Shown: positions 5,831 through 32,383, counted from the first letter of the stretch. The stretch is DNA of 64,000 nucleotides from Candidatus Dojkabacteria bacterium (GCA_016927655.1 JAFGMG010000001.1:179599-243598), one strand, 5' to 3'. Made by a program: numbers and translations. Notes: generated from the sequence alone by a model not told the origin.

Positions 5831-7726
5831 TTAATCCCAATAATAATAGCTATAATAATTAGAGACTAACGAATCCCTTGTAACCAATCTTTCGTTCTCA
5901 GGATTTTGTGGATCAATTACCCATAAATCATCCTCCTTCGAAAAAAATAATAGCCCATCTCGCCAAAATGCATTATCAACCTTTCCGTTAGATGTTATCT
6001 TTGTTTCTTCTTTGTTACTTAAATCAACTACATATATATCTGATTTATTGTCTCTGTTACTGACAAATGACACGAACTCTGAGTTGTCCGAAAACCTTGG
6101 AGAATATTCATACGAGGCAGTATTAGTGATTTTTATAAGTTCACCTTTATTAAAAATACGTATAAATAAATCCGAACCCTGTGGGGTCCTTTCCCGGATC
6201 ATAGCCATCTTCCCATCTGAACTAAATTCTATTATCTCTCCATATTTGTTCTCTTCATTGTTTGGCTCATATATACGATCCTTATCCAAATTAGTCGTAT
6301 TCATTAAATAAAGTCCATTCCTGCTACTATCTGGATAGTATCCCTGAAACAGCACATATTTGCCATCATCAGATATACTGTAGAAATAAGTGGATTCATT
6401 TTCTGATGTATGGGCTAACTGCTTATTACCCGTCCCATCAATGTTTCCAAACCACATTTGATAGGTGTCTGGATAATCAGGGTGCTCCTTTACAAATGCC
6501 CTCTTTCCTGCTCTCAAATTATATGCTCCAATATTGCCATCATTGTCATTGTATTCATTAGAAGAAATCTTTGTAATTTTCTTTGTCAAGACATCTACTT
6601 TGTAAACAAGATCAACAATATCACCGTCATCATCTTTTTTCCCGTCTCTATTTGATAGGAAATAGACCACATTGTTAGCCTCATCGAAGTATGGAGAATA
6701 ATTCCTGCCCGTGTTTCCAGTCAGCAGCTGTTCTTCAGAACCATCATAGTTTGCAATATATATCTGCTCATTCCCAGTTCTATTTGAAGTGTAAACTAAT
6801 TTGCCTTCACGAACCATCTGCAAATCTTCTTGAAAATTTTTACCCTGTTCTACACTCCCCACTTCAATATTCTTTGTTATGTACCCATCCTTCACAACTT
6901 GCAATGAGGCCCTGTCTTTTAGTTCTAGATCTTTAATATAACATTCAGCTTGCCTTTGTTCATAGTTAATTGTTTCTATCTCTTCTTCGTTAATTGTTCC
7001 AGAAATCTTGAGATCTTCGATAACAATTTGAGATAGCCAATCAGTACAGTCAAAGGTTATATCTCCAGCTACCTCGAGAGTTCTTGTCCCAAGATCAATC
7101 ACGAGCTGAGATACATCAACTTCAACTTCTATATCTTTATAATTGGGGGATTGAATCTTCACCCTTTCCGTTGTAATTTCAACATTTTTCACCTCAAAAC
7201 TACCGTCATCCCCAACTATAATTGGTTCAGAATTTTCCCCAAGATTGAGGATTAAGTCATCCTCAACTACCTTGCCCTTGTTTTTCTCAAGATTCAATAC
7301 ACCTATAAAATCCCTGCGACCAGCAATCTGCATTTCAAACTCCTTGAAATTTGCACCTCTTTTGAGATTTACAATCATGGTTGCTGTTTCGTAGCCTTGC
7401 TGTGAGATTTCAATTGTATTTTTACCATAAGTCAAATTCGCCAGAGAAAACTCACCATTAGAATCTGTATTTGTGCATTTATTTCCTATACAGACTCTTG
7501 CTTCCTCTATCGAAATATTTTCATAGTCATATACTTGACCATCTAAAGATGAAGGGAAAATAATTGAATCGAGTTTGAAGATTAAAATAACCGGTATGGC
7601 TATAGAACATAGCAATCCAAGCACAAAGACACTCCATATAGCTATTCTGGTTGTTTTTCCTAACTCTTTGTACTTTTTAACAACCCTTTTAGAGAATGTC
7701 ACTTTTTTATTATCTTTTGCCATCAT
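5831..7726 (-). CDS. membrane-anchored TolB-like beta-propeller protein with carboxypeptidase-regulatory-like domain
   Basis: N-terminal TM helix (IAIWSVFVLGLLCSIAIPVILIF). CIGNKCTNTDSNGEFSL...TIEISQQGYETATMIVNL resembles CarboxypepD_reg. Repeated PD40-type motifs (LVYTSNRTGNEQIYIANYDGS, VVYFLSNRDGKKD, FVSFVSNRDNKSDIYVVDLS). Confidence 0.6.
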   Translation of the reverse strand: MMAKDNKKVTFSKRVVKKYKELGKTTRIAIWSVFVLGLLCSIAIPVILIFKLDSIIFPSSLDGQVYDYENISIEEARVCIGNKCTNTDSNGEFSLANLTYGKNTIEISQQGYETATMIVNLKRGANFKEFEMQIAGRRDFIGVLNLEKNKGKVVEDDLILNLGENSEPIIVGDDGSFEVKNVEITTERVKIQSPNYKDIEVEVDVSQLVIDLGTRTLEVAGDITFDCTDWLSQIVIEDLKISGTINEEEIETINYEQRQAECYIKDLELKDRASLQVVKDGYITKNIEVGSVEQGKNFQEDLQMVREGKLVYTSNRTGNEQIYIANYDGSEEQLLTGNTGRNYSPYFDEANNVVYFLSNRDGKKDDDGDIVDLVYKVDVLTKKITKISSNEYNDNDGNIGAYNLRAGKRAFVKEHPDYPDTYQMWFGNIDGTGNKQLAHTSENESTYFYSISDDGKYVLFQGYYPDSSRNGLYLMNTTNLDKDRIYEPNNEENKYGEIIEFSSDGKMAMIRERTPQGSDLFIRIFNKGELIKITNTASYEYSPRFSDNSEFVSFVSNRDNKSDIYVVDLSNKEETKITSNGKVDNAFWRDGLLFFSKEDDLWVIDPQNPENERLVTRDSLVSNYYSYYYWD

Positions 7727-7863: not shown

Positions 7864-9144
7864 ATGAAAAAACAAAAAGTTGCAGTAATTGGTTTGGGAT
7901 ATGTCGGTCTGCCGCTTGCAATAGCAATCCAGAAAAGTAAAAAATACAAATTAATCGGATTTGACATAGATCAAAGCAAAATTGACCAGCTGAATGCCGG
8001 AGTTTGTTATCTGGAAGATGATTTCATTAAAGAAGAATTTAGGAAACACCCTGTTAATGTCGGGACAGATGTTAACGAACTCACAGACACAGACATTTTC
8101 ATAATCGCGGTCCCTACTCCAGTTACAGATGATTATGTCCCTGACTATACCCCGGTTATCAAAGCCAGCGAAACTGCAGCACAGTTCCTTAAGAAAGGAG
8201 CAACTGTCGTTCTTGAATCAACCGTCAATCCAGGGACTTGCGAAGAAATTGTTCTGCCGATCCTGGAGAAAATCAGCAAATTAAAAGGCAAAAGAGACTT
8301 CAACCTTACTCATTGCCCGGAAAGAATAAACCCCGGAGATCCGAAATGGAATGTGTACAATATCCCAAGAAATGTCGGATCTTTGGATCTGAAAAGAAAT
8401 AAAGAAATAGCAGACTTCTACAGATCGATAATCGATGCTGAAATCAACGAAGTTTCAAGCCTCAAAATCGCAGAATCGACCAAAATAATCGAGAATACCT
8501 TCCGAGATATAAATATCGCATATGTCAATGAACTGGCAAAATCATTTGACGCTATGGGTATCGATCTGATTGAGACGATCAAAGCTGCATCAAATAAACC
8601 CTTTGGCTATATGCCGCATTGGCCGGGAGCCGGAGTCGGGGGGCATTGCATTGCTGTGGACCCATACTATTTGATCCAAAGAGCTGCAAAATCAAATTTC
8701 AATCACAAGTTTTTGAAAATGGCACGCTCGATCAACAATTCTATGCCTCGTTATGCAATTCAAAGACTTGAAGAAGCTCTAAAAGAGGCAAAACTATCAA
8801 GAAACAAGGCGACGATTGCTATGCTTGGAATCAGTTATAAAGCAGACGTTGCAGATCTTCGCGAATCGCCGAGTCTGGAGATTAAAAGCCTCATGAAAAA
8901 AGAAGGCATAAAGACAATTATTTACGACCCGTATTTCCTGGAGCAATCGGACTTTAAAACTCTCGCAGAAACGCTGGCTGCATCTGATGGTGTATTACTT
9001 GCAACGGCACACAAGGAATTTTTATCTCTTGACGGCCAGAAACTGAAAAATACAAAACAAAAATTTGTCATTGACGGCAGAAACGCACTCGATAAAGCTG
9101 ATATAATTGACTCTAATATTATTTATAAAGGGATTGGCCGATGA
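7864..9144 (+). CDS. UDP-sugar (UDP-Glc/UDP-GlcNAc/UDP-ManNAc) dehydrogenase family protein
   Basis: KVAVIGLGYVGLPLAIAI N-terminal NAD site, and a HCPERINPGD-type catalytic Cys region, typical of the UDP-glucose/GDP-mannose dehydrogenase family. 426 aa. Confidence 0.8.
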   Translation: MKKQKVAVIGLGYVGLPLAIAIQKSKKYKLIGFDIDQSKIDQLNAGVCYLEDDFIKEEFRKHPVNVGTDVNELTDTDIFIIAVPTPVTDDYVPDYTPVIKASETAAQFLKKGATVVLESTVNPGTCEEIVLPILEKISKLKGKRDFNLTHCPERINPGDPKWNVYNIPRNVGSLDLKRNKEIADFYRSIIDAEINEVSSLKIAESTKIIENTFRDINIAYVNELAKSFDAMGIDLIETIKAASNKPFGYMPHWPGAGVGGHCIAVDPYYLIQRAAKSNFNHKFLKMARSINNSMPRYAIQRLEEALKEAKLSRNKATIAMLGISYKADVADLRESPSLEIKSLMKKEGIKTIIYDPYFLEQSDFKTLAETLAASDGVLLATAHKEFLSLDGQKLKNTKQKFVIDGRNALDKADIIDSNIIYKGIGR

Positions 9145-10088
9145 AACTAATAATTCTAATACCGGCTCTAAACGAAGCCGAATCAATTGCAAAGACAATC
9201 AAAAGCATCCCGCAAAAAATTACTGGAGTTGATGAAATCGTTTCTTTGGTAATCAACGATGGATCTGCCGACGCTACTGCGGAAATTGCAAAAAAAAATG
9301 GCGCACAGGTTTTCTCACACATAAAAAACAAAGGTGTCGGGGCAGCATTTCACTCAGGAATTGAATGGGCGCTTGAAAACCATGCTGATATGCTTGTAAG
9401 TATTGACGCTGATGGGCAGTTCGACCCAAAAGACATTGAAAAAATAATCGCCCCGATCCTTGAAAACCAAGCAGATATGGTCGTTGGCAATAGGTTTGCG
9501 AAAGGCAAACCTGAGAATATGTCCGGACTTAAATACTGGGGGAATAAAAAAATGAACAGGCTAGTTAGTAGTCTTGCAGGTGAAAAATTTGAAGATGTCT
9601 CTTCAGGATTTAGAGCGTACAATCAGAAAGCACTGCTAAACATCAACCTTCTTGGCAAATTTACTTACACACAGGAAGTTTTTCTCGATTTATCGATGAA
9701 AGGCTTGAATATTGTTCAGATTCCAGTTGATGTCAAATACTTCAAAGAAAGAAAATCCCGCGTAGCGGGCAATATTGTGAAATATGCATTTCGCACTTCA
9801 TGGATAATTTTTAGAACGATTCGTGATTACAAACCATTGAAGTTTTTTGGATTGCTGGGACTTGGGATTTTTGTATTTGGATTGTTTTTTGATGGATTTC
9901 TGCTTGGACATTATATTCTTGCTGCTAAATTCTCCCCTTATATCTCGATTGGCTTCATTGGGGCATATCTAAACTCAATTGGCTTGGGGATCATGTTTCT
10001 GGGGCTGATTGCCGATATGTTTGACAGGGTCAGGCAAAATCAGGAGAAGATTTTGTATTATTTGAAGGCGGGATCGTATAGAGAATAG
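9141..10088 (+). CDS. GT2 polyprenyl-phosphate glycosyltransferase (DPM1/ArnC/GtrB-like)
   Basis: N-terminal GT2 domain (LIILIPALNEAESI..VINDGSAD..DADGQ) plus C-terminal TM helices (FFGLLGLGIFVFGLFF...), the architecture of lipid-phosphate sugar synthases. Start overlaps the previous stop (ATGA). Confidence 0.75.
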   Translation: MKLIILIPALNEAESIAKTIKSIPQKITGVDEIVSLVINDGSADATAEIAKKNGAQVFSHIKNKGVGAAFHSGIEWALENHADMLVSIDADGQFDPKDIEKIIAPILENQADMVVGNRFAKGKPENMSGLKYWGNKKMNRLVSSLAGEKFEDVSSGFRAYNQKALLNINLLGKFTYTQEVFLDLSMKGLNIVQIPVDVKYFKERKSRVAGNIVKYAFRTSWIIFRTIRDYKPLKFFGLLGLGIFVFGLFFDGFLLGHYILAAKFSPYISIGFIGAYLNSIGLGIMFLGLIADMFDRVRQNQEKILYYLKAGSYRE

Positions 10089-10228
10089 CCGGCCTTAATA
10101 TTTGTTCACCGCCCTTGAATTCTGCTACAATGGGACTGTAACTATTTACTGCTTCTACTATGCTTTACGAGACATACTTGGGTCGCTATAAGAATATTCG
10201 CACAATCGGTAAAAAATACAAGAGATCA

Positions 10229-13200
10229 ATGTCTTTTATATTGCTTGCTGTTTTGGCATTCGGTCTGATACTTAATCCCCTGGTAACCCTGCCAGCAGGA
10301 GCAAGTCAAACGATCACCGCAGTTGGGACTGACAAACTTAAAAACCCGGATTATTATCCAAAAAAGACAGAGAATTTAATCGCTAAAACTACTGAAATTA
10401 TCGGGCTGGATTCAGAGATCACTCCAGCGCAGGTTTTTGAATTTGAAAAAGAAACATCCGGCTTCTATTTTACACTCAGAGCCGGAGAAAATTTCTCAGA
10501 GAGCAGTTTCAAGGTTGAATATCCTTCCGGAGAAATTTCAGACGAATATCTAATTCAAGAAAGTGACGTGTATTTTGGAGAAGATAGCTCAACCAGTTTA
10601 GGAAATAGAACTTCGGAATTATATTTATTCAATCAGGGAGTTACAAAAGTTTTGGTGTATTGCGGTTCAGATACCGAATTTGAAATCCATCAGATTGGTG
10701 AGCAAAACAACGACTTTGAAGATTCTCTTGGCCTAACGCAAATCAAAGCATTTAGCAGTACACCAGCCGAGACAACCTACAAAGAAGCGCTATTTAGCAA
10801 TATGGGCTTTAATATTATCACAAGAGAAGAATGGGGGGCACCAACAGAAAGCGGATGGGGACCGACAATTGCGGATGTAAATAGAATTGTGATTCATCAT
10901 ACCGCTACAAGTGTCGATATGAGCAATCCTAAAAATACTGTAAAAGCAATTTATGACTATCACAAAATAAGATGCAACAACAATATCGGCACCGCACCAA
11001 CATACTGCGACTATGCAGATACATGGCAGGATATTGGCTACAACTATTTGATCGATCCATATGGGAATGTCTACGAAGGCCGGGCAGGAGGCAATGGAGT
11101 TGTCGGCGCCCATGCTATTCCAAATACGGGAAGTATTGGTATTTCAATTTTGGGCGACTACAGCAATCAAGTACCAACCAGCGCTTCTTTGAATGCCTTA
11201 TCAACACTTATGGCAAGATTGAGTTTGATCAATAATTTTTCACTGACAAAAGGATCCAGTGTACTCGGACATAGAGATGTAAATGCAACGGCTTGTCCGG
11301 GGAATGCTTTTTATAGCAAACTAAGTACAGTTACAAGCAATGCAAATCAAATCAGAACTACTGCCTCTACAGCAAAAACAGCAAATACAAAGATCAACGA
11401 TTATCTTGCTCCAGAACGTGAATATATCAAAAAAGACGGAAAGACCCAGCTAATAGTTGATACGACAGGGCTTAGCCTAACTATGATCGAAAAGCTTTCT
11501 ACAGTATCTAGGGGGATTGATGAGATTACAGAAATTGATAATGGGCTGATTTATACTGTTGATGATGCGAAGGCTGATCAGGTAATTGGAGAGACATATG
11601 TTGCTGCCAGCAGTACCAAAATTCAGCCTGATTTTATATATAGGCTTGAATCCTGGGACAATACTGATCCGGATAGATCAATTCCAAGCGACTATGATGT
11701 CAGTACTCACTGGAACCTGGAAAAGACAAATACGCCAGAAGCCTGGAAAGACCTGGGAGGATGTACTGGCGATGATAGCTGCGGGGGAGATTCGAGTGTA
11801 ATAGTAGCAGTACTAGACACTGGAGTAGCTTATGAAGACTTTGATTTCGATGCCGGAGGGACATATTCTACTACCAAGTATTCCGGTTTATGGATTGATG
11901 TTCCTGGAGCTGCTGCAAATGGAACATACAATGAAGGCTACGACAGGCAATTTTATCAATTACCGGAACTCGCAGGAGTGAATTTTGTCGATCCATATGA
12001 CCCCGCGTGGGATTTGCTTTGCAGCATAAGAACAGGCGGCGGTGCCTGCAACGCAACCGAGCTTGCAAAAATTGATCATCCAAACGACGATAATGGCCAT
12101 GGTACTTTTGTGACAACGATTATTGCCGGAGATACCGGAGACACTGCACCTAATAAAGTTGTTGGAATTGCTCACAACGTATCTATAATGCCGGTAAAAG
12201 TTATGCTTCCAAATGATAGAAGTATGTGCCAGACAGCAGCAGGAGCACTTGATCTGACCTGCGCTGATTATCGATATGATTACCGTTCGGTTGGCACCAC
12301 ATCTACTATTGTTGCTGGGATCGAGCACGCGGTAGACAATGGCGCTGATGTGATCAACATGAGTCTTGGTGGAGAAGGAACAGATTCAGTAATGGAAGCC
12401 GCGGTTGATGCAGCTGTAGCTGCAGGTGCAATTGTAGTGGTCTCCTCAGGTAATGAAAATGATGATATAGCGAATTATTTCCCAGCTTCATTTAATAATG
12501 TAATTGCTGTCGGAGCAACAAACACAGATGATAGCAGATCCTCCTATACAAATTATGGAGAAGAGCTTGATATTTCTGCTCCAGTTGGCACTACGATTAG
12601 ATCTAGAACTTTGAATTGCTATCCAAGCGAAAATGACTGTTCTAACGAAGCAACGTTAGACTTTTCAGTGTTTTCGTCTGAATCGACACCAAAAACAAGC
12701 AGCGGGACAAGCTTTGCAGCGCCGCAGGTTAGTGCCGCAGTTGCCCTGCTGAAATCATATAAGCCATTTCTTAATTATGAAATGATAAAAGCACTTTTAT
12801 ATCAAAATTCTACAGATATAGGAACGGCAGGCAAAGACAATCTTACCGGCTGGGGATTATTAGATATAGAGGCATCGCTAATCGGAGCGGATTATGCATT
12901 TCCCGCATCAAGCAAATGGCATGATTGGTTTGCACCATACGGAGAAGTGCCCGAGGTTGGTGACTTCAATCATGACGGATATGATGACATTGTGACTTTC
13001 ACAAGCGATGGATGGGGCGACGTATGGATCGCCCTAAACAACAGTGGGACGGGCTTTAATACTTCTTCAAAATGGCATGACTGGTTCGCGCCATATGATG
13101 AGATCCCGGCAGTTGGAGATTTTAATGACGATGGATATGACGATATCATAACCTTTACAAGTGATGGGTGGGGCGATGTATGGGTCGCTCTTAATGATCA

Positions 13201-13834
13201 GGCCGGAGGGTTTGATACTGCCACAAAATGGCATGACTGGTTTGCACCATTTAATGAGATTCCAAGAATTGGAGATTTCAACGGAGATGGTTACGATGAT
13301 ATAGCAACCTTTACAAGTGATGGGTGGGGCGATGTATGGATTGCTCTTAATAATCAAACCGGAGGATTCAACACCGCAACCAAATGGCATGACTGGTTCG
13401 CACCTTTCGATGAAATACCGGCAGTTGGAGATTTTAATAATGACAGCTATGATGATATAGCAACTTTTACGAGCGATGGATGGGGCGATGTATGGGTCGC
13501 TCTTAATAGCCAGTCCAGTAGTTTTAATACATCTACAAAATGGCATGATTGGTTTGCCCCTTATGATGAGATCCCTGCAATCATGAATTTTGATGGCGAT
13601 ACAGATTTAGATATTGTTACCTTTACAAGTGACGGTTATGGGGATGTATGGCTTGCAACAAGTGATGGGGGGACTGGATTTAACCCATCACACCTTGCCC
13701 ATTACTGGTTTGCGCCATTTAATGAAATTCCTAAAGTCGGAGATTTTGACGGTGATGGGAAAGATGATCTAGCCACTTTTACCAACGACTCTAATTGGTG
13801 GGGAGACGTCTGGGTATCTATAAATCAGAACTAG
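10229..13834 (+). CDS. secreted multidomain cell-wall hydrolase: Amidase_2/PGRP domain + subtilisin-like S8 peptidase + 7x FG-GAP-like repeats
   Basis: Signal/TM MSFILLAVLAFGLILNPLVTLPAGASQ; the track ORF starts at 10160, and the ATG at 10229 gives a signal-peptide N-terminus. Amidase_2 motifs HHTAT...GYNYLID...GAHAIPNTGSIGISILGDY...LGHRDVNATACPG. S8 triad regions VAVLDTGV (Asp), HGTFVTTIIAG (His), GNE (oxyanion), GTSFAAPQVSAAVALL (Ser). Seven ~52-aa repeats KWHDWFAPYDEIPAVGDFNxDGYDDIxTFTSDGWGDVWxALN at the C-terminus. Confidence 0.8.
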   Translation: MSFILLAVLAFGLILNPLVTLPAGASQTITAVGTDKLKNPDYYPKKTENLIAKTTEIIGLDSEITPAQVFEFEKETSGFYFTLRAGENFSESSFKVEYPSGEISDEYLIQESDVYFGEDSSTSLGNRTSELYLFNQGVTKVLVYCGSDTEFEIHQIGEQNNDFEDSLGLTQIKAFSSTPAETTYKEALFSNMGFNIITREEWGAPTESGWGPTIADVNRIVIHHTATSVDMSNPKNTVKAIYDYHKIRCNNNIGTAPTYCDYADTWQDIGYNYLIDPYGNVYEGRAGGNGVVGAHAIPNTGSIGISILGDYSNQVPTSASLNALSTLMARLSLINNFSLTKGSSVLGHRDVNATACPGNAFYSKLSTVTSNANQIRTTASTAKTANTKINDYLAPEREYIKKDGKTQLIVDTTGLSLTMIEKLSTVSRGIDEITEIDNGLIYTVDDAKADQVIGETYVAASSTKIQPDFIYRLESWDNTDPDRSIPSDYDVSTHWNLEKTNTPEAWKDLGGCTGDDSCGGDSSVIVAVLDTGVAYEDFDFDAGGTYSTTKYSGLWIDVPGAAANGTYNEGYDRQFYQLPELAGVNFVDPYDPAWDLLCSIRTGGGACNATELAKIDHPNDDNGHGTFVTTIIAGDTGDTAPNKVVGIAHNVSIMPVKVMLPNDRSMCQTAAGALDLTCADYRYDYRSVGTTSTIVAGIEHAVDNGADVINMSLGGEGTDSVMEAAVDAAVAAGAIVVVSSGNENDDIANYFPASFNNVIAVGATNTDDSRSSYTNYGEELDISAPVGTTIRSRTLNCYPSENDCSNEATLDFSVFSSESTPKTSSGTSFAAPQVSAAVALLKSYKPFLNYEMIKALLYQNSTDIGTAGKDNLTGWGLLDIEASLIGADYAFPASSKWHDWFAPYGEVPEVGDFNHDGYDDIVTFTSDGWGDVWIALNNSGTGFNTSSKWHDWFAPYDEIPAVGDFNDDGYDDIITFTSDGWGDVWVALNDQAGGFDTATKWHDWFAPFNEIPRIGDFNGDGYDDIATFTSDGWGDVWIALNNQTGGFNTATKWHDWFAPFDEIPAVGDFNNDSYDDIATFTSDGWGDVWVALNSQSSSFNTSTKWHDWFAPYDEIPAIMNFDGDTDLDIVTFTSDGYGDVWLATSDGGTGFNPSHLAHYWFAPFNEIPKVGDFDGDGKDDLATFTNDSNWWGDVWVSINQN
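12910..13830 (+). repeat. seven tandem ~156-nt coding repeats (FG-GAP/VCBS-like, DxNxDGxDD Ca-binding-like motif)
   Basis: Direct reading. The unit starts (aaatggcatgaytggtt) recur at about 12913, 13069, 13225, 13381 and 13537, plus a diverged unit and a final unit. The repeat also produces the spurious antisense ORF 13067..13546. Confidence 0.8.
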
Positions 13835-13840
13835 CCTGCG

Positions 13841-14962
13841 ATGAAACCTATATACATCATTATTGGGACCAGAGCACAGTTAATAAAAATGGCTCCAATA
13901 ATGCAGCAGCTAGAGATCCGAGGAATTAAGTACGAATTTCTTTATACCCAGCAGCACAAGGTCACGATTGACGATCTGCTTCAAAATTTCTCTATTAAAA
14001 CTCCATATAGGCAAGTCATAAAACGAAAAAAAGAAGCGAAGACAATTAGACTCTTTGCCGGGTGGGCGTCTCAAATGCTCCTTGCCATGTTCAACCCATT
14101 TTCAAGAAGGCGACTATTAAGCAGCGGACGTGGATTGATTCTGACTCATGGAGATACTGCAACCGCTGCATGGGCAGCTATTTACGGGCAGACATCACTG
14201 TGCAAAGTAATGCACATCGAATCGGGTCTTCGCTCATATAATATCTTAAAGCCATTCCCGGAAGAGTTGATGCGCCTGATCACTTTCACATTCTCAAACT
14301 ATTATGTCTGCCCGAACGAATGGGCAAAAAACAACTTAAAATGGTTTCCAGGCAGGAAACTCAACGTCGGAGCGAATCAAATGTACGATGCACTTATGTA
14401 TGCTCTAAAAAAGATCCAGGAACCAACTTATAAATCAAAATTATCCAATCTAAAAATTCCTCCAAAATATGCAATAGTAAGTATTCATCGTTATGAGAAT
14501 ATTTTTAAAGCAGACGCATTTGAAAAGATCCTGCGCCTGCTTGAAAATATTGCAAAAAGTATTGATCTTGTGATTGTTTTACACCCAGTTACCGAGAAAC
14601 GCCTTAGACAAACTGGTAATTATATGCGATTAAAGAATAATGCCCAAATTACTCTCGTGCCAAGGTTGGATTTTTTGAGTTTTGTGGAGATTAATAAAAA
14701 TTCTGAATTTGTAATTACTGATGGCGGAAGCAATCAAGAAGAAATGAGTTATCTCGGTAAACCGACTTTACTTTTTAGAGATACTACTGAAAGGAAAGAG
14801 GGGTTAGGGGAAAATTCAATCCTTTCTAATTTTGACGAGGGGATTATTACCGATTTTGTTAGTTCGTATAAGAAATATGAGCGCCCAGCAAAAAATATCA
14901 CTCCCTCTCCAAGTCAACTGACCGTCGACTGGATAGAAGAGATCACCAGGGTAAATAAATAG
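13841..14962 (+). CDS. UDP-N-acetylglucosamine 2-epimerase-like (WecB family, divergent)
   Basis: IIGTRAQLIKMAP (cf. GTRPEAIKMAP), THGDTATAA (cf. VHGDTTTT), HIESGLRSYN (cf. HVEAGLR), PFPEELMR (cf. PWPEEANR), DGGSNQEEMSYLGKPTLLFRDTTERKEG (cf. [27 protein letters not shown]). Confidence 0.75.
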   Translation: MKPIYIIIGTRAQLIKMAPIMQQLEIRGIKYEFLYTQQHKVTIDDLLQNFSIKTPYRQVIKRKKEAKTIRLFAGWASQMLLAMFNPFSRRRLLSSGRGLILTHGDTATAAWAAIYGQTSLCKVMHIESGLRSYNILKPFPEELMRLITFTFSNYYVCPNEWAKNNLKWFPGRKLNVGANQMYDALMYALKKIQEPTYKSKLSNLKIPPKYAIVSIHRYENIFKADAFEKILRLLENIAKSIDLVIVLHPVTEKRLRQTGNYMRLKNNAQITLVPRLDFLSFVEINKNSEFVITDGGSNQEEMSYLGKPTLLFRDTTERKEGLGENSILSNFDEGIITDFVSSYKKYERPAKNITPSPSQLTVDWIEEITRVNK

Positions 14963-15012
14963 ACACTAATTTCTTTTTCAATTAGAATCAGCTAAGTTAT
15001 TAGACAATATTT

Positions 15013-15696
15013 ATGAATGTAATAATTCTTGCTGCAGGGATGGGAACTAGATTAGGCAGCCTTGTTCCAAAACCCCTTACTCCGCTTAAGAATGAAGAGA
15101 CAATCCTTGATTATCAGCTGAAAAATATTGCAAAATACGTTGATTTGGATAACGTCATTTTGGTAGTAGGATATAAGTTCTATTCAATTATCGAAAAATT
15201 CCCAAATCTAATGTATGTCTACAATCAAAGATACACTCAAACAAATACAGCAAAAAGTCTTCTTATGGCACTAAAGAAATGTAAAGACGGAGATACTATT
15301 TGGATGAATGGAGATGTTTATTTCGATCATAGAATTCTCCAGAAGCTTATGAAATCCAGAAGATCAACTCTAGCTGTAGATAACAAGAAGTGCTCAGATG
15401 AGGAAATTAAATACACTTTACATAAAGATGGTTTTATAAACGAACTCTCAAAAACAGTAAAAAAGCCTGTAGGCGAGGCACTTGGTATAAATCTTATCAA
15501 GGCAAAAGATACACAGACCTTCATAAACTCTCTTCAACGTGTAGAAGACACTGATTATTTTGAGAAGGCACTTGAAAACCTCACGACGAAAGGGAAGCTT
15601 CAACTAAAAGCTTTGAATGTTGAAAATTTGTATTGTAAAGAAATTGATTTTCCCGAAGATCTAGAAGAAGTTAAATCTCGCATTTCCCGAAAATGA
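15013..15696 (+). CDS. LicC-like sugar/alcohol-phosphate cytidylyltransferase (NTP_transferase fold)
   Basis: MNVIILAAGMGTRLGSLVPKPL, VVGY, and a length of 227 aa are collinear with CTP:phosphocholine cytidylyltransferase LicC-type enzymes. Confidence 0.65.
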   Translation: MNVIILAAGMGTRLGSLVPKPLTPLKNEETILDYQLKNIAKYVDLDNVILVVGYKFYSIIEKFPNLMYVYNQRYTQTNTAKSLLMALKKCKDGDTIWMNGDVYFDHRILQKLMKSRRSTLAVDNKKCSDEEIKYTLHKDGFINELSKTVKKPVGEALGINLIKAKDTQTFINSLQRVEDTDYFEKALENLTTKGKLQLKALNVENLYCKEIDFPEDLEEVKSRISRK

Positions 15697-16847
15697 AAAT
15701 AGATAAGCGAAACATCAAACATTGGCTGTATTTGATTGTAACCACCGTAAATATTTTTATTGGTTTAGCTCTACGAATCAAGCCCTCCCCGAGAAGAATC
15801 ATTTTATATGGTCACAAACTTAATGGGAACCTTCTGGCCTTTTATAAATACATAAAAGAGAACCAAAAGGATTACGAGATTTATTATCTGACAATGGATC
15901 CAGATTATTACAGGAATATTAGAGAAAAACACTCCGTTCTTCTCTGCTTGAAACCTGCCGATATGATTAAAGCTGCAAGAGCAAAATGCTTTGTCACTGA
16001 TCATGGACTTCACAGCTTAAGTATTTATAAAAAGTTCACAAATATAAAATTTTTCGATGTCTGGCATGGAATTCCATACAAAGGATTCGATCAGGATGAT
16101 TTTGCGCCGCTTCATAATTATGACCAGGTTTGGGTAAGCTCACCTTCTATGAAAAATATCTATGTGAGTAAATACGGTTTTAATGAAGAAAAAGTCAAAG
16201 TGACAGGATATGCTAGAACAGACCCTCTAGTAAATAATTTATACAACAGACAAGAAATCTTGAAGAAATATGGTTTATCCGGGTTCAAGAAGATCATTTT
16301 AATTGCGCCGACCTGGGCCCAAGATGATAAAGGCCGAAGCATTGTGCCCTTTGGTGTCCCAATTGATAAATTCTTCACTAGGCTGAATCTTGTCGCAAAA
16401 TCAGTTAATGCGCTAATAGTTTTTCGAGCTCACTTAAATTCAGCCGAAATCGCCAATCTTGGGCCCTTGAGCAACGTTAAAATTATGTCGTATCAAAAAT
16501 ACCCAATAGCAGAAGAATTTTTGTACATCGCCGATCTTTTAGTCAGCGATTGGTCCTCTATTGTCTTTGACTATTTAGTTCTTAGAAAACCCACAATCTT
16601 TCTGGACGTAAAAGCACCATTTGCAAAAGGATTCAGCTATGATGCCTCATACCGGTTTGGGGAAATAGTAGGAAGCATGACCGATCTGGAGCATGCACTG
16701 GAGAAATATTCAAAAAAGCCTGCAGAATTTAATAAAAAGTATGCAGGATTGATGCAGGATGTAAGCGATGAAGTATATAATATCTACGCTGACGGGAAGT
16801 CTGCTAAAAGATATTTTGAGAATTTAGCAAAATTGACTAATGCATAA
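15693..16847 (+). CDS. CDP-alcohol (CDP-glycerol/ribitol-type) phosphotransferase, TagB/TagF family
   Basis: ILIAPTWAQDDKG (cf. YAPTWR) and ADLLVSDWSSIVFDYLVLRKPTIFLD (cf. TDYSSVFFDF..KP.IF) are hallmark Glyphos_transf motifs. Overlaps the upstream gene (ATGA). Confidence 0.7.
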   Translation: MKIDKRNIKHWLYLIVTTVNIFIGLALRIKPSPRRIILYGHKLNGNLLAFYKYIKENQKDYEIYYLTMDPDYYRNIREKHSVLLCLKPADMIKAARAKCFVTDHGLHSLSIYKKFTNIKFFDVWHGIPYKGFDQDDFAPLHNYDQVWVSSPSMKNIYVSKYGFNEEKVKVTGYARTDPLVNNLYNRQEILKKYGLSGFKKIILIAPTWAQDDKGRSIVPFGVPIDKFFTRLNLVAKSVNALIVFRAHLNSAEIANLGPLSNVKIMSYQKYPIAEEFLYIADLLVSDWSSIVFDYLVLRKPTIFLDVKAPFAKGFSYDASYRFGEIVGSMTDLEHALEKYSKKPAEFNKKYAGLMQDVSDEVYNIYADGKSAKRYFENLAKLTNA

Positions 16848-18009
16848 AATAAAAGTAAAAATCCTCTATAGAAATTATAAACCAATTCACGCTACATATA
16901 CTTCTTTGCTAGAAAACCCTCCAGAAGGAGTTAATTATGTAATACCAAAGGTACGAAAAGATCTGAAACTTCTTCTTCCGATATACCGGAAGTTCGGGGA
17001 TATGCGGATAAGCAAAAAATTAATGCAATTTTTGCAGAGGCAGGTTTTTGAAAAAGGGAGGCTGGAAACTGATAATATAGATCTTTTGCACTATGTTCAG
17101 ATGCTCCCCAAAAAATTGCCTGACAAGCCTTTTATTATCGACATTGAACACGCTGCAGCGCTATTCAATTTTTCGAAATTCTCCCGAGAAGATATAAGCA
17201 ATCTAATCTCAACTCTGCAAACAGATCAATGTAAGCAGGTAATTGCCCTTAGCGAAGCAGCGAAACAGTCTATACTCAAATTGACCGGAAACGATTCTGT
17301 AATAAGTAAAAAGATTAGCGTAATATATCCAGCCGTAAAAAGATTTTATGAAGCGTACAATACTTCGATAAATTCCAACTACATAAAACCTGGCAACGGG
17401 CTAAATATACTTTTTGTTGGATCTCATCCAGCGAATAAGGGACTTTTTGAACTCCTTGAAACATTCAATCAACTACAAGAACTTGATCTAAACTTGCATA
17501 TAATTTCAAATGCCTCTAAAAAACTAATCTCTAAATTTACCAGTCCTAAAATACACTTCTATCCTTCAGAATTTGACCGCGAAGAAATTGTGAAAAGTTT
17601 TTATCTGCCTGCAGATGTATTTATTATGCCAACAAGAGGCGATACATTCGGAATGGCGTTTCTAGATGCACTTGCTTCAAAAACCCCCGTAATTACTACA
17701 AAGCAATACGCCTGCAAAGAAATCATTAAAGATGGCCAAAATGGTTTTCTAATCGATTCAGAAAATTTATATCTCGAGAAATATCCTATGCCCTCAAGAA
17801 AAATTGTAGAATCTTTCAGCAAGCGTAAGATCGAGGGGCTAGTGGTCGAACAGCTTGTTATTATTATCAAACGACTCTACAATGACAGAGAGCTATTGAA
17901 AGCAATGAGTGTAAACGCTCTTTTGGATTTTAGAAAAGGCGGTAAATTCTCAATAGAAAAAAGGAATGAGCAGCTAACTCATGTATATGAAAAAGCACTA
18001 AACTCATGA
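16840..18009 (+). CDS. GT4-family (GT-B) glycosyltransferase
   Basis: C-terminal EX7E-type region FIMPTRGDTFGMAFLDALASKTPVITT. 389 aa. Confidence 0.7.
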   Translation: MHKIKVKILYRNYKPIHATYTSLLENPPEGVNYVIPKVRKDLKLLLPIYRKFGDMRISKKLMQFLQRQVFEKGRLETDNIDLLHYVQMLPKKLPDKPFIIDIEHAAALFNFSKFSREDISNLISTLQTDQCKQVIALSEAAKQSILKLTGNDSVISKKISVIYPAVKRFYEAYNTSINSNYIKPGNGLNILFVGSHPANKGLFELLETFNQLQELDLNLHIISNASKKLISKFTSPKIHFYPSEFDREEIVKSFYLPADVFIMPTRGDTFGMAFLDALASKTPVITTKQYACKEIIKDGQNGFLIDSENLYLEKYPMPSRKIVESFSKRKIEGLVVEQLVIIIKRLYNDRELLKAMSVNALLDFRKGGKFSIEKRNEQLTHVYEKALNS

Positions 18010-18968
18010 AAAAATATTTAGGTACAATCCTTACGATATTCTTTTTGACAGTTTTTTGTATTTATTTTCTAGGGAATCTTTCGAAATTTAAGCCACTGCT
18101 TGATATTTCATTAGGCTCATTAGTTCTAATTGGGATTCTCAAAATCATAGTAATTTTTCTTAACGGCTTATTTATAAAAGTCACACTCAAATCTTTTGAT
18201 AAAATAATTACCCAACTTGAAACATTTTATATTTCCCTGCTATCTTCGATTGGAAACTATTTCACCCCAATGCAGGGAGGGGCTGGTATCCGGGCAGTAT
18301 ATTTAAAAAAGAAATTTAATCTTGCATATTCACATTTTCTATCAACCCTATCCGGAAATTACATAATTTCCTTTTTGATAAACTCACTAATCGGTTTGGT
18401 TAGTTTATTATTGGTTCACAAATACCAAGGACATTATTCAGGTGTGCTTTACGGATTTTTTATCGCATTATTTATTGTAACCCTGATTTTGAGTATTTTT
18501 AAAGTACCGCCAAAAATATTTCAGATCAATCTCAAGCTGAAGCCCCTAAACCGAATACTGAAAATAATCTTGATGATTGTCGAAGGCTGGAACCGGATTA
18601 TTGGCAACAAGACTTTTCTACTGCAGCTCATTTTCCTTACAATCGCGAATTTTTGTATTGGTCTATTTACTGTGTATTGGGAATTCCATATTTTTGGGAT
18701 AGAGACACATCTTTACAATCTGACATTGTATTCTGCCCTTGCCGGAGTGACATTATTGATCAGTCTTACCCCAGGCTCAATTGGTATTAGAGAAGGTGTT
18801 TTTATCTTTTCATCCACTCTTATTGGCATAACACATGAGGAAATCCTGCAAATAGCAGTTGTTGATCGAGGTGTTTTATTCTTTGTGCTTGTAGTTTCCT
18901 ACTTGCTAATAAAAATAGTCCCCGCACCCAAAAATATCCGGATGTTAATGAGAAGAAATGGTAAATAG
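18006..18968 (+). CDS. polytopic membrane protein, LPG-synthase-TM/flippase-like family (PF03706-like)
   Basis: About 8 predicted TM helices; the conserved motif LTPGSIGIREGVF resembles the PGGxGxxE motif of that family. Confidence 0.5.
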   Translation: MKKYLGTILTIFFLTVFCIYFLGNLSKFKPLLDISLGSLVLIGILKIIVIFLNGLFIKVTLKSFDKIITQLETFYISLLSSIGNYFTPMQGGAGIRAVYLKKKFNLAYSHFLSTLSGNYIISFLINSLIGLVSLLLVHKYQGHYSGVLYGFFIALFIVTLILSIFKVPPKIFQINLKLKPLNRILKIILMIVEGWNRIIGNKTFLLQLIFLTIANFCIGLFTVYWEFHIFGIETHLYNLTLYSALAGVTLLISLTPGSIGIREGVFIFSSTLIGITHEEILQIAVVDRGVLFFVLVVSYLLIKIVPAPKNIRMLMRRNGK

Positions 18969-20298
18969 ACTTCAATTGAAAAATAACTGGCATCGGTATC
19001 TATTCGCAGTAATTATTGGGCTTTTTGTTTTACAAGGCGCATATTTTGCTCTAAGAATAAAATTCGAACTCCCGCCTGATGAAGGCTATCATTTTGAATT
19101 TATCAAACAATATTCGGAAGTATTATATACTCCGGAGAATTCCCCGGAGACGTATCAATTTGGTCCTATCAATCATAAACCATATTTGTATCATTTCCTT
19201 TTTGGCAAGCTTCTACATTTAAACATTTTTGGAATTGAAGATTTTGTCTTTATTAGATTACTAAACATCTTTCTGGGCGTGGCAACAATTATCACCACGT
19301 ACAAAATCACCTCAATATTTACAAAGCGAAAGACGACAAAGTTGTTATCTGCCTTTCTAATTGCAAACACTTTGATGTTCGTTTTCCTTTCAGGATCCAT
19401 CAATTATGACAATCTAGTAAATCTACTTGCCGCCTTGAGCATTTTATTTACTCTAAAATTTACAAAATCACGGGAACTTCGTTTTCTCCTTCTGTTTATC
19501 TCAACTGCTTGCGCTGGAGTACTTACAAAAATAAGCTTTATACCCCTAGCGCTAACTCTAGGATTGATTATTTCAATGGATATTATTTTTTCCCAATTAA
19601 AGAATCTAAGAATAAATCCTATAGAATTCAAAAAGCAGATAAATATCCTAAATATTCTTCTTTTTGCCACTTCTATGATACTTATAGTTTTAAGCCTGAG
19701 ATTATATATCGGGAACTTTTTAAATTTTGGGGGGTTCGAGCCAAGCTGTGATCAGGTTCTTACTCAAGAACAGTGTTTAAATGATCCTATTTATACAAGA
19801 GCGATAGAGGGACAATCAACGCAGCCGGAAAACCTAATGAATCCGTTTGAATATTTTTTCCGATGGTATTTTTACATGCAGCAGAAATCACTTGGTATAC
19901 TAGCACATCAGACAATGATTAAACCTTTAAAGTATCTAATACCTTATAATATTTTGATTATACTTTCACTTTTTCTCTATCTAAAACATCCTAAATTAAT
20001 TAAACAAGATCGTAAACTATTGATATACCTAGGAATAACGGTAATTTCATACTTGCTCATTCTAGCTTTCTATCAAAACTACCAGACATACTTGGCTACC
20101 GGAGAAATTGGGCGTGCATTACAAGGCCGTTACGCCTTCCCAGTTCTTTCGGGAGTTTATATGCTATTTTTGTACCCTTTCGATAAGTATCTAAATAAAA
20201 AGCATAGACTTATACTCTACATACTAATCACAGCAATTTTCCTCTGGGGAGGATTTTTCTTCTTCATCACGAATGTGCCAGGCAGCTGGCTGAGATGA
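18958..20298 (+). CDS. GT-C fold glycosyltransferase (ArnT/PMT-like; polyprenyl-phosphate-sugar dependent)
   Basis: 446 aa, more than 10 TM helices. The first extracytoplasmic loop carries LPPDEGYHFEF, matching the DE-x-(Y/H)F catalytic loop of GT39/GT83 enzymes. Confidence 0.5.
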   Translation: MVNRLQLKNNWHRYLFAVIIGLFVLQGAYFALRIKFELPPDEGYHFEFIKQYSEVLYTPENSPETYQFGPINHKPYLYHFLFGKLLHLNIFGIEDFVFIRLLNIFLGVATIITTYKITSIFTKRKTTKLLSAFLIANTLMFVFLSGSINYDNLVNLLAALSILFTLKFTKSRELRFLLLFISTACAGVLTKISFIPLALTLGLIISMDIIFSQLKNLRINPIEFKKQINILNILLFATSMILIVLSLRLYIGNFLNFGGFEPSCDQVLTQEQCLNDPIYTRAIEGQSTQPENLMNPFEYFFRWYFYMQQKSLGILAHQTMIKPLKYLIPYNILIILSLFLYLKHPKLIKQDRKLLIYLGITVISYLLILAFYQNYQTYLATGEIGRALQGRYAFPVLSGVYMLFLYPFDKYLNKKHRLILYILITAIFLWGGFFFFITNVPGSWLR

Positions 20299-20301
20299 TT
20301 C

Positions 20302-22065
20302 CTACAAACTCCAAACAGGTTTTTTATTCAAATCCTTGTTTAGATTTGGGTTGTAATATGGGTCATTATTAATGAATCCGCTCCACTTTCCCTGCATGTA
20401 TTTATCCTCATATTCGCTGACTTGCGGATCTCTCGATTTTGATTCGTAATGATAAAGCTCTACGTATGGGGTGTAAACGTTTCTATAACCTTTTTCATAC
20501 AATTTCAAACAAAGATCAACATCATTAAATGCTAGAGGCAATTCCTCATTGAACCCTCCGACCTCATCAAATTTCGCTTTGGAGAGCATCATACAGGCAC
20601 CTGTAACTGCGAGATAGTTCCTGACGCAATGAAGCTGATTGAAATAGAAATTATTTTCTTCCGGCTGTCTATAATATGCGTGATTTGCAACCCCTCCTAC
20701 CCCTAGCAAAATTCCCGCATGCTGAACTTTCCTGTCTGGGCAAAGAAGCTTACAGCCAACGGCACCAATTTCTTTCTGCTGAGCCCACATAAGAAGGCCT
20801 GAGAGCCAATCACTATTTACTACTTTGGTGTCATTGTTAAGAAAAAGAATATAGTCTGCCCTGCTTTGTTTTGCGGCAAAATTATTTATTGCAGAGAAAT
20901 TGTACTCATGAGGATAATCGAGCACTCTTACTTTGTCTTTGATCTGGCCTAGATACTCTTTCGTCTCTTCCAGTTCGGAATTGTTATCTACAACTGTGAC
21001 TGAATAATTATTATAGGATGTATTTTCCCAGATTGATTCCAGACAGGTTTTTAGAAGTTCGATTTTGTCTTTGATCGGTATAATTATTTCAATTGACGGA
21101 CTGCCTGCTACTTCTAATACAGGAAGAAATGGATAGAAATCGTGGATTATTTCACCTTTTAATCCTCGTCTTCCTAAAGCATCTCTAAGTGCCTTTTTTG
21201 CTGAATCTATTGCATAAGACTTGCCTTTGATATCTGAAGCAGTTGATCCTTCAACTTTTCGCCAGGAGTATAACACCCAGGGAATATGTTCTATTCTTTC
21301 AGTCAGCTCCATCACCCGCAGACACAAATCGTAGTCCTGGCTGCCTTCGTAGCCTTTGCGCATTTTGCCGGATTTTTCAAAGATTTCTCTTGAATAAACG
21401 GCGTGTGTGGGATACATCATTGACCACATAAGTTCAGGTGAAAAATCCGGCTTGAACCACGGTTCTATTCTCGTGCCGAATTTATCGAGCTTATCTTCAT
21501 CGAAGTAGACCAGGTCCTGATCACCTTTTTTATTTAGTAGTTTTACAATTTCATAAAGTGCGTGCGAATGAAGTATGTCATCATTATCCATGAGCATTAG
21601 ATATTCTCCGCTTGAAATTGCAAATGCTTCATTTGTTGCGCCGGAGATATTCTGATTTTCCTCTCCAAATTTGATTTTTAATTTCCCCGTTCTGTCATTT
21701 GCCTGCAATTCTTCCAAATATTTTATTGTATTTTGATTTGTAGAAGCATCGTCATACAAGCACAGTTCCCAATTCTCGTACCATTGGCTCATGACACTTG
21801 CAACTGCCTCTTTTAGAATCTGGGAATCGACATTATAAACCGGCATAAGAATCGAGATTTTCGGAGATTTTTTGAATTCTGATATTTGCTTCCTAAAATC
21901 CTCTCCGCTCAGATATACTTTTTCAACATTTTCTATCCAAGTAGCATAAAGCTTGTTTTGATCAGGATAGATGCTCAATCTTTTCAGCTTCCCTGCTGCT
22001 CGTTTGAGCAGCCCCAAAATCCCTTCGTTTTTCAAGACTTCCTTCGATCTTTCGAAATAGTACAT
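20302..22065 (-). CDS. dual-domain GT2 glycosyltransferase (rhamnan/O-antigen-type)
   Basis: Two GT2 modules. The first is ISILMPVYNVDSQIL...LYDDAST...LMDNDD; the second is IEIIIPIKDKIELL...TVVDNNS...LFLNNDT. Confidence 0.75.
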   Translation of the reverse strand: MYYFERSKEVLKNEGILGLLKRAAGKLKRLSIYPDQNKLYATWIENVEKVYLSGEDFRKQISEFKKSPKISILMPVYNVDSQILKEAVASVMSQWYENWELCLYDDASTNQNTIKYLEELQANDRTGKLKIKFGEENQNISGATNEAFAISSGEYLMLMDNDDILHSHALYEIVKLLNKKGDQDLVYFDEDKLDKFGTRIEPWFKPDFSPELMWSMMYPTHAVYSREIFEKSGKMRKGYEGSQDYDLCLRVMELTERIEHIPWVLYSWRKVEGSTASDIKGKSYAIDSAKKALRDALGRRGLKGEIIHDFYPFLPVLEVAGSPSIEIIIPIKDKIELLKTCLESIWENTSYNNYSVTVVDNNSELEETKEYLGQIKDKVRVLDYPHEYNFSAINNFAAKQSRADYILFLNNDTKVVNSDWLSGLLMWAQQKEIGAVGCKLLCPDRKVQHAGILLGVGGVANHAYYRQPEENNFYFNQLHCVRNYLAVTGACMMLSKAKFDEVGGFNEELPLAFNDVDLCLKLYEKGYRNVYTPYVELYHYESKSRDPQVSEYEDKYMQGKWSGFINNDPYYNPNLNKDLNKKPVWSL

Positions 22066-31181: not shown

Positions 31182-32296
31182 ATTAAAATTTCGTCTAGGT
31201 CATATATTGTGCTCATCTTTCCGGATAAAACACTTGTAAAATTGGGGCTTTTATTTGCTTGTACTATAACAGTAGGCCTTGAGTCATCTACTTCAGAAGA
31301 CTGAAGAACCGGCTTAAGTGTGTACAATGATTCTTTATAATTATAGCTTATTTCCGGAACCAAATATTTTTTCGCTAACTGGCTCATATATTTCCATGCT
31401 GTTGCTGGTTTTCTGCTCTGCTTTACCCCTTTGTTATTAGGCTTAAGGAATTTAAAGTCCGGGAGATCTGCTTTGCTGCTCTTATGTGGAGTAAATGAAA
31501 CAGATGTCAGAGAGTGGTTCTTAGAAAGGCCAAAAGGCATTAGAGAAAAAAAAGGACCATCCATCACAGTCAGTCCGATATTTTTAATGTTGTTGCTCAC
31601 ATCACAGATAATTACTTCGCAGTATTCATACTTTATCGGGAAGTATTCATAGCCGAAGACCTTTAGCACTTCGTTTATCCCGGCATACGTTAAATTCAGC
31701 ACATTTGGAGTAAGAATCTTCTCGCCTGTATTTAGCCTCAAAAAGTATTTATCATTTTTTATTATCGCTTTCTTTACGATCGTATTTAAAGAGATGTCAG
31801 CCTTCTCGTATTTTGATAGTTCACTTAAGAAATACTCCCTAATCTTGATTGCGTCATAAGAATACTCATGTGTTTTAAAAGCCGCTTCTACAAACCCCTC
31901 ATTAAAGTATTTTGATGAGTCTATCTCTTCACACTCAACTCCAATATTGCTGCAGAACTTTTTATAACTTGCTGCATTTGTATGCGAGAAGACACTCGAT
32001 ATTGCATATATTTTGGAAAATTCTTTATTGATTGCAAAATCAAAATCTCTGGAGAATTTTTCGAAGTATTGAATTGTTTTTTGTGCTGTTGCAACACTTC
32101 GCGGATAATGATACCCCTTATGCAGCCTTGCCTGATTTACATACGAGCCCGCATTCAATGGAAGATTGGTTTTTTCAATCATTAAAACACTACGACCTTT
32201 CCTGGCTAACTTCTCGGCAGCATATAAGCCAAATATTCCAGCCCCGATTATTACATAGTCATATTCTTTTTGATTATAATATTCCTCTGTAGGCAT
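31178..32296 (-). CDS. FAD-dependent oxidoreductase (Rossmann GxGxxG; UDP-galactopyranose-mutase/amine-oxidase-like N-terminus)
   Basis: YDYVIIGAGIFGLYAAEKLARKGRSVLMIEK is a classical FAD dinucleotide-binding motif. Weak resemblance to Glf, and only at the N-terminus. Confidence 0.6.
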   Translation of the reverse strand: MPTEEYYNQKEYDYVIIGAGIFGLYAAEKLARKGRSVLMIEKTNLPLNAGSYVNQARLHKGYHYPRSVATAQKTIQYFEKFSRDFDFAINKEFSKIYAISSVFSHTNAASYKKFCSNIGVECEEIDSSKYFNEGFVEAAFKTHEYSYDAIKIREYFLSELSKYEKADISLNTIVKKAIIKNDKYFLRLNTGEKILTPNVLNLTYAGINEVLKVFGYEYFPIKYEYCEVIICDVSNNIKNIGLTVMDGPFFSLMPFGLSKNHSLTSVSFTPHKSSKADLPDFKFLKPNNKGVKQSRKPATAWKYMSQLAKKYLVPEISYNYKESLYTLKPVLQSSEVDDSRPTVIVQANKSPNFTSVLSGKMSTIYDLDEILI

Positions 32297-32383
32297 AAAA
32301 TGCAGTCTGGGGCAGAATTAACTCTTAGTATTTTTAAAGGCTTTGTAGTATCATTAGCGCACGTAATCATAACACGAATCCTT

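Follow-up and report, generated by a model that had tools for sequence, protein, structure and literature searches.

A 64,000-nucleotide stretch of DNA from Candidatus Dojkabacteria, an uncultured bacterium of very small size (JAFGMG010000001.1:179599-243598, the whole of which is here called the window) carries on its plus strand a gene for a large exported protein that combines a peptidoglycan amidase, a subtilisin-type (S8) protease and a C-terminal module of tandem FG-GAP units. Candidatus Dojkabacteria, formerly WS6, are a lineage of the candidate phyla radiation (CPR), also named Patescibacteria. We read the product as the predicted precursor of a wall-anchored, self-processing autolysin/protease of the Dojkabacteria cell, a reading to which we give about even chances. 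Its more interesting points are a putative six-bladed lectin for wall polymers, a predicted processing site built into the chain and the position of the gene within a cluster for glycan synthesis. An initial annotation of the same DNA, made from the sequence alone, had overlooked the putative pro-domain that separates the amidase from the protease, the N-terminal domain peculiar to the family and the ties of the lectin-type module to Actinobacteria. Residue numbers throughout are those of the 1201-residue form starting at the ATG at 10229, and the layout is as follows.

10160..13834, plus strand: whole open reading frame (ORF), 1224 residues from the first ATG, stop codon counted in.
10160..10303, plus strand: predicted signal peptide, read from the sequence; homologues share the layout.
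10304..10840, plus strand: N-terminal family-specific beta-rich domain, with AlphaFold strands at a predicted local distance difference test score (pLDDT) of 70-85 and without a Pfam match.
10874..11305, plus strand: Amidase_2/PGRP-type Zn amidase domain (H223, Y271, H348, T354, C356).
11441..11641, plus strand: pro-domain-like beta-alpha-beta-beta-alpha-beta unit, from AlphaFold topology, Foldseek and conservation, ending in an invariant QP-x-Y-x-Y.
11792..12856, plus strand: Peptidase_S8 catalytic domain (D530, H624, oxyanion N742, S828), with an insertion of ~60 residues between D and H.
12908..13831, plus strand: six tandem 52-residue FG-GAP units, modelled as a six-bladed, lectin-like propeller, from the repeats, AlphaFold and Foldseek.

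The motif WFAP recurs in the C-terminal module at residues 900, 952, 1004, 1056, 1108 and 1160, an exact 52-residue period that gives six units over 894-1201, and a hidden Markov model built from the units also counts six. Ca-type DxNxDGxxD loops and the motif KWHDWFAP repeat across the units, and the region is matched by FG-GAP and FG-GAP_3 (Pfam, E 1e-17 and 5e-14). The initial annotation had described exactly seven 52-residue repeats with Ca-type loops, of which the length and the loops stand and the number does not. An AlphaFold run on the module, fed with an alignment of 110 actinobacterial-type module sequences, gave a confident model (pLDDT 90.6, predicted template-modelling score 0.88) whose 23 strands keep strictly to a period of four; the fourth strand of the last blade is missing and residues 1-20 have low confidence, and the ring is presumably closed by the first ‘SKWH’ strand. 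The best solved match to this model (Foldseek, PDB) is 9oee_A, UmbA4 with Streptomyces griseus teichuronic acid, at E 1.4e-16, a template-modelling score on the query (TMq) of 0.77, 323 columns and 26% identity. The seven-bladed fungal N-acetylglucosamine (GlcNAc) lectins PVL and AAL2, which according to their PDB entry titles bind terminal GlcNAc, reach a TMq of about 0.63, and integrin alpha-V reaches 0.42-0.47. UmbA4 has been described as a six-bladed beta-propeller lectin in which the blades keep the core and Ca-type loops, and which binds wall teichuronic acid between blades 5 and 6 and on blade 4 (PMC13274773). As modelled, the C-terminal module of the Dojkabacteria protein is a six-bladed lectin-type propeller with putative sugar binding.

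The seven-bladed integrin-type propeller proposed earlier, for which structure prediction had been suggested as a check, was rejected: the prediction is confident and has six blades, the unit count is six, and both sequence and structural matches to integrins are weak. A related possibility is that the propeller is not a lectin and serves, as in integrins, as a protein–protein or Ca-dependent scaffold that attaches the enzyme to a layer of surface protein or to a partner protein. FG-GAP units with DxNxDGxxD loops do occur in integrin alpha subunits, which match the module weakly (E about 0.005), but we consider this role highly improbable, since integrins lie well below the lectins UmbA4, PVL and AAL2 in structural similarity (TMq 0.42-0.47 vs 0.63-0.77) and the partners to which the module is fused elsewhere are predominantly peptidoglycan hydrolases.

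These fusions were seen in a search with residues ~888-1201, which returned 610 matches. The best 120 of the 610 share 44-65% identity with the module, and the named ones among them are nearly all from Actinomycetota (Micromonospora, Streptomyces, Nonomuraea, Lentzea, Actinoplanes and Catellatospora). A peptidoglycan-hydrolase domain is fused to the module in 46 of these 120 relatives, namely M23 (PF01551) in 34 proteins, glucosaminidase (PF01832) in seven, CHAP (PF05257) in three and Amidase_2 in two, and six more carry a protease (S8, M10/astacin, trypsin or C10). Six units are present in 96 of the 120, and the apparent ‘sevens’ consist of five full and two partial units in a shifted register. 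At the DNA level the units of the Dojkabacteria gene are 46-80% identical in pairs, and Tandem Repeats Finder reports 76% over 4.3 copies, values that do not bear out the roughly 85% first given. The longest exact stretch common to two units is 34 nt, and units 1-5 differ by 11-25 synonymous codon changes per pair; so many synonymous differences and such short exact runs indicate old repeats kept by protein-level selection rather than recent duplicates. Together with the six units of most relatives, this makes the suggested variation in copy number by recombination unlikely.

The affinities of the propeller bear on a second reading, raised by the initial annotation as an attack on a foreign wall, tentative and in our judgement somewhat unlikely, in which the enzyme is directed at a host or prey. 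The lectin would then read the wall glycopolymer of the host, and the amidase and the protease would breach or degrade the wall of that host and its surface proteins, so that the cell could attach or gain peptides and muropeptides. CPR bacteria are generally host-dependent (review PMC13293708), UmbA4 is a lectin that targets the wall polymers of other species, and the propeller has its closest relatives in Actinobacteria. P0015, the only family member that shares the six-unit module type, and the protein studied here each have modules 54-59% identical to actinobacterial ones vs 46% to each other. However, the actinobacterial bias may come from the composition of the databases, no host of Dojkabacteria is known, and the literature searched holds no paper on such an enzyme. 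The module also has a G+C content at third codon positions of 0.37, the same as that of the neighbouring genes and the genome; this equality led us to reject a recent horizontal gain of the propeller, and any exchange must therefore be old.

In the preferred reading, an enzyme of the producer's own wall, self-processing would lie with the central part of the protein. Peptidase_S8 (PF00082) matches residues 522-876 far above its cutoff (Pfam, E 8.5e-46, 157 bits vs 21.8), and D530, H624, N742 and S828 occur in the order of the triad, with N742 as the oxyanion residue, and are invariant in 24/24 family members. PDB subtilisins match the AlphaFold model at E about 1e-19 (Foldseek). That model, a full-length run with the 24-member family alignment (mean pLDDT 67.7), comprises the beta-rich N-terminal domain, the amidase, a pro-domain-like unit, a confident S8 domain (pLDDT 80-94) and a poorly modelled C-terminus (pLDDT 27-57). 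The pro-domain-like unit, with beta-alpha-beta-beta-alpha-beta topology, lies at mature residues 380-446, i.e., 405-471 in the numbering used here. Unprocessed pro-subtilisins are among the best Foldseek matches (pro-Tk-subtilisin 2zwo, 2e1p and 2z2z; pro-subtilisin E 3whi), and the alignment extends over ~525 columns to these vs ~390 to mature subtilisins. With the 355-residue pro-subtilisin E chain 3whi_A the template-modelling score on the target is 0.81; the ~275 mature residues would by themselves reach no more than ~0.78, and the pro-domain must therefore superpose as well. In the family alignment the unit ends in the invariant QP-x-Y-x-Y, followed by a conserved ...HWNLEKxxxPEAW... linker into the DTG motif. 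Subtilases usually have their pro/mature junction at such a position, where autoprocessing is expected. The I9 pro-peptide family was absent from the Pfam matches of the protein at E<=1 and from those of all 24 members at E<=0.1, and comparison of a linker-region profile with PDB sequences found only chance calreticulin matches (E>2). The predicted structure thus suggests that a pro-domain-like unit sits between the amidase and the S8 domain, a position at which autoprocessing should split the protein in two.

The Asp-to-His gap of the S8 domain (530-624, nt 11816-12100) is 94 residues long; in subtilisin BPN' it is about 32. The insertion is kept in most family members and is modelled as extra beta-hairpins and two helices. 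Three members (P0015, P0024 and P0025) keep the N-terminal domain, the amidase and the pro-domain-like unit and have an S8 domain without the ~60-residue insertion that looks like another subtype; within the family, these three may have acquired another protease part or altered theirs heavily. Among NCBIfam models the top S8 match is the type VII secretion-associated mycosin family (TIGR03921, E 1e-43), and membership was rejected, as 149.8 bits lie far below the equivalog cutoff of 278.75 and the protein has neither type VII secretion system context nor a C-terminal membrane anchor.

The position of the pro-domain-like unit also allows a narrower role, in which the sole important substrate of the protease is its own precursor, so that the protease switches on or releases the amidase and does nothing more. 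The amidase lies directly upstream of the unit, and standard subtilase self-cleavage would therefore free it; the activation of the cortex-lytic pro-SleC by Csp subtilases, to which we return below, offers a precedent. We nevertheless hold so restricted a function to be improbable. The S8 domain retains a full fold of the substrate-cleft type, and the binding module is on the protease half, not on the amidase half, which suits a protease acting on wall-associated substrates. The occurrence of three members with another S8 subtype lacking the insertion likewise suggests a protease that is more than a fixed self-cleaving device.

The amidase that would accompany such a wall-bound protease has all of its expected residues. 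Amidase_2 (PF01510) matches residues 216-359 (Pfam, E 3.2e-17, 63.5 bits vs a cutoff of 26), and the closest PDB sequences are animal PGRPs (E 8e-22), with T7 lysozyme at E 1.3e-5, in alignments that span the Zn-ligand motifs IHHxA, DIGYN and GHRDVxxTACPGN. The Zn ligands H223, H348 and C356 are present together with Y271 and T354, and this set of H, Y, H, T and C is unchanged in 24/24 aligned family members. From the spacing of the motifs, we take the three ligands to correspond to H17, H122 and C130 of T7 lysozyme. By these sequence criteria the domain is a PGRP-type Zn N-acetylmuramoyl-L-alanine amidase with all catalytic residues, predicted to cleave the bond between N-acetylmuramic acid (MurNAc) and L-Ala. 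In these catalytic parts the initial annotation was right: it had named a PGRP/T7-lysozyme-type amidase with its Zn ligands and a complete subtilase triad, a Pfam scan of the kind it had proposed matches Amidase_2, Peptidase_S8 and FG-GAP/FG-GAP_3, and its motifs lie where it had placed them (HHTA at 223, GHRDVNATACPG at 347, DTG at 530, HGT at 624 and GTSFAAP at 826).

Export of the protein is predicted from its N-terminus. One unbroken plus-strand ORF ends with the stop at 13834 and can start at the first ATG, 10160 (1224 residues), or at the ATG at 10229 (1201 residues). The upstream ATG adds MLYETYLGRYKNIRTIGKKYKRS, i.e., a basic n-region (KKYKRS) ahead of the hydrophobic core, and the signal peptide read from the sequence then consists of an n-region ending in GKKYKRS, the hydrophobic core MSFILLAVLAFGLILNPLV and a cleavage-type site P-A-G-A|SQ. 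Each homologue has a basic n-region before the hydrophobic core, and P0003 likewise starts with MLYK. NCBI holds an identical protein of 1224 residues (P0001, ‘S8 family serine peptidase [Candidatus Dojkabacteria bacterium]’), encoded on a contig of 255,869 bp. Because of the shared n-region and this NCBI form, 10160 is the likelier start, 10229 is probably an internal methionine, and the product is more likely the 1224-residue than the 1201-residue form. The single continuous ORF of the initial annotation and its signal peptide, seen as a hydrophobic stretch at the N-terminus that bears a cleavage-type A-G-A motif, therefore stand, and its start at 10229 gives way to 10160.

Some 25 proteins share the core of N-terminal domain, amidase, pro-domain-like unit and S8 at 28-53% identity, and every source name given for them is Dojkabacteria or WS6. 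In the 24-sequence alignment, where identity over the core is 31-53%, the protein studied here follows the common order of N-terminal domain, amidase, linker with the invariant QP..Y and EAW, and S8, and both Amidase_2 and S8 are present in all 24 sequences. The N-terminal domain, which has no Pfam match, found just 19 proteins among 1.84 billion representatives, each time matching at the N-terminus in the same place, and was seen in this family only. That a fusion of this kind is unusual, as first remarked, agrees with the GTDB species representatives, where one locus among the matches listed spans amidase and S8, and this too is from Dojkabacteria (KatS3mg085). In the complete KatS3mg085 genome (AP024679.1; locus L004, 8001-10491) the homologue is spread over frames 3, 1, 3 and 1, which implies three or more frameshifts, and it ends with S8 and lacks a propeller; either the gene is decaying into a pseudogene or indels in the assembly broke it up. 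The C-terminal modules of the family differ: FG-GAP types occur in 14 members, TIG with FG-GAP in five, DUF5648 in three, dockerin in two and an H-type lectin (H_lectin) in one, and the remaining members have unassigned repeats. Four proteins (P0003, P0004, P0009 and P0017) have, in place of the propeller, three to five copies of a ~95-residue repeat without a Pfam family (pattern YYFTWYD...AWILIGNPS...ITP.YN...GPV...SQR...SFNE), which looks like an unclassified binding repeat. Each kind of domain was known before and the protein is in the databases under a generic name; the literature searched contained no paper describing the domain combination, an amidase upstream of a subtilase pro-domain, or a Dojkabacteria-only family with exchangeable lectins. 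Under the host or prey reading, this diversification of the C-terminal modules resembles that of receptor-binding proteins, and their swapping would track host range.

The gene neighbourhood speaks for the producer's own envelope instead. The gene is part of a co-directional run (7864-20298) and lies 72 nt after a gene for a family 2 glycosyltransferase (GT2) and 6 nt before a WecB-like epimerase gene. The neighbouring genes encode the following proteins.

Nucleotide-sugar dehydrogenase, with UDP-N-acetylmannosamine (ManNAc) dehydrogenase as best match.
GT2 of the polyprenyl-phosphate type.
WecB-like UDP-GlcNAc 2-epimerase.
Nucleotidyltransferase.
TarF/TarL-like polyol-phosphate transferase.
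Family 4 glycosyltransferase (GT4).
Flippase-like protein.
PMT-like glycosyltransferase.

Further glycosyltransferases reach to about 40 kb of the window. Going by family names, and with both scores below the equivalog cutoffs, the epimerase and the ManNAc dehydrogenase would yield UDP-N-acetylmannosaminuronic acid (UDP-ManNAcA), a building block of the teichuronic-acid type. The 1224-residue protein had no exact entry in the contig index, and context was therefore compared between the window and the loci of the homologues P0004, P0015 and P0017, four loci at 31-100% protein identity. The loci of P0004 (49% identity), P0015 (31%) and P0017 (38%) contain GT2 and GT4 genes, sugar epimerases and dehydratases, and Wzt/Wzm-type exporters, so that a surface-glycan context was found in 4/4 loci examined. 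This conserved place in the producer's own surface-glycan clusters points to its own envelope rather than to a foreign wall, and argues against the host or prey reading. Promoter and terminator scans of the region gave counts equal to those in shuffled sequence.

The ~36 kb from 3861 to 40359 form one surface-glycan biosynthesis island with dTDP-sugar genes (RmlA-like and RmlB-like) and many GT2 and GT4 genes, among them those for a 587-residue double-GT2 protein (20302-22065), an 825-residue GT2+GT4 fusion (23377-25854) and a 1011-residue GT2+GT2+GT4 fusion (32270-35305). At its edge, on the minus strand (5831-7726), is a 631-residue protein with CarboxypepD_reg/PEGA-type beta-sandwich domains followed by PD40/DPPIV_N-type propeller repeats, which may be another envelope-associated propeller protein. 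Two plus-strand ORFs beyond the island, 40399-41955 (518 residues) and 43243-45084 (613 residues), have no Pfam match at E<=0.001.

In the reading that we prefer, the protein would be exported and the subtilase would then cut at the junction of pro-domain and catalytic domain, as pro-subtilisins do, to yield one piece with the N-terminal domain, the amidase and possibly the pro-domain and another with the protease and the lectin. The propeller would bind an anionic wall glycopolymer and so hold the enzyme on the wall; this polymer would most likely be the cell's own, of the ManNAcA/polyol-phosphate type made by the products of the flanking genes. The amidase would cut MurNAc–L-Ala bonds during wall turnover or the separation of daughter cells, the protease would mature or trim surface proteins, and C-terminal binding modules may have been swapped among family members to match differing glycopolymers. 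Several points weigh against this proposal. Given the negative I9 searches, the pro-domain draws on predicted structure and not on sequence matches, and the case for sugar binding by the propeller draws on the resemblance of its fold to UmbA4 (26% identity) and on fusion partners rather than on conserved ligand residues. The module was found in no other protein of the 64-kb window, and a general anchor to the cell's own wall would often be shared by several proteins. Glycan clusters fill much of the window, and the adjacency could partly be chance within a ‘surface island’. Since the promoter and terminator scans did no better than shuffles, a putative operon membership is read only from the strand and the spacing of the genes.

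Almost nothing is known about how CPR bacteria build, divide and remodel their envelopes or grip other cells, and the family offers a defined and testable candidate: a lineage-wide surface enzyme with three activities whose targeting module could be produced on its own. Binding of the propeller to the polymer that the flanking genes make would give a first enzyme–ligand pair for a Dojkabacteria envelope; binding to the polymer of another organism would provide a handle on the identity of the host. A stronger proposition, which we regard as unlikely, is that the whole family is a host-recognition and wall-opening tool of Dojkabacteria, in which an exchangeable lectin reads a species-specific host glycopolymer and the amidase and protease breach the envelope. 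Were it true, the actinobacterial-type propeller would point to an actinobacterial host and allow host prediction from sequence for an uncultured CPR class. The wall-glycopolymer-binding six-bladed propeller of the Streptomyces umbrella toxins would, with these proteins, extend to ordinary wall hydrolases of Actinomycetota and to CPR bacteria.

Among known systems, the umbrella toxin protein UmbA4 of Streptomyces coelicolor (PDB 9oee; PMC13274773) has six blades and Ca-type loops as modelled here. It has a trypsin-like domain and a bulb lectin and works within a UmbA/B/C toxin particle, whereas the Dojkabacteria protein is 26% identical to it and has glycosyltransferase neighbours. Membership in UmbA was rejected: Pfam finds no trypsin domain, and the neighbours are sugar-nucleotide enzymes and glycosyltransferases with no Umb partners among them. 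PVL and AAL2 (PDB 2bwr and 4tqj) and the propellers of integrin alpha share FG-GAP-type blades with Ca loops with the protein described here, but have seven blades instead of six units. A coupling of an S8 protease to the activation of a peptidoglycan hydrolase is found in Clostridium, where Csp subtilases activate pro-SleC, as cited in PMC2605481 (reference B46). Csp and SleC are separate proteins of spore germination, unlike the single polypeptide of a non-sporulating CPR bacterium. Closest in the binding module are the actinobacterial six-unit hydrolases of Micromonospora, Streptomyces, Nonomuraea and Lentzea (P0123, P0142, P0146 and P0133; S8 fusion P0129), for which no characterization was found in the literature searched. 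They have the same module, six units of ~52 residues with KWHDFF/GDFNGDGxDD motifs at 45-55% identity, and are secreted proteins in which a C- or N-terminal module is joined to a wall-cutting or proteolytic domain, as here; in contrast to the Dojkabacteria protein, they have one catalytic domain and ~350-540 residues, and none has the core of N-terminal domain, amidase, pro-domain and S8. Staphylococcal Atl/AtlE is an exported bifunctional autolysin precursor with a pro-region, an Amidase_2-type amidase and wall-binding repeats, from which proteolysis produces two wall-bound enzymes that act in cell separation. By description, the Dojkabacteria protein resembles it as an exported precursor with an Amidase_2-type amidase and binding repeats. 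Atl, however, pairs its amidase with a glucosaminidase, has GW/SH3b-like repeats and is processed by other proteases, whereas in the Dojkabacteria protein the partner of the amidase is itself a protease, with a predicted pro-domain of its own, and the repeats are modelled as a propeller.

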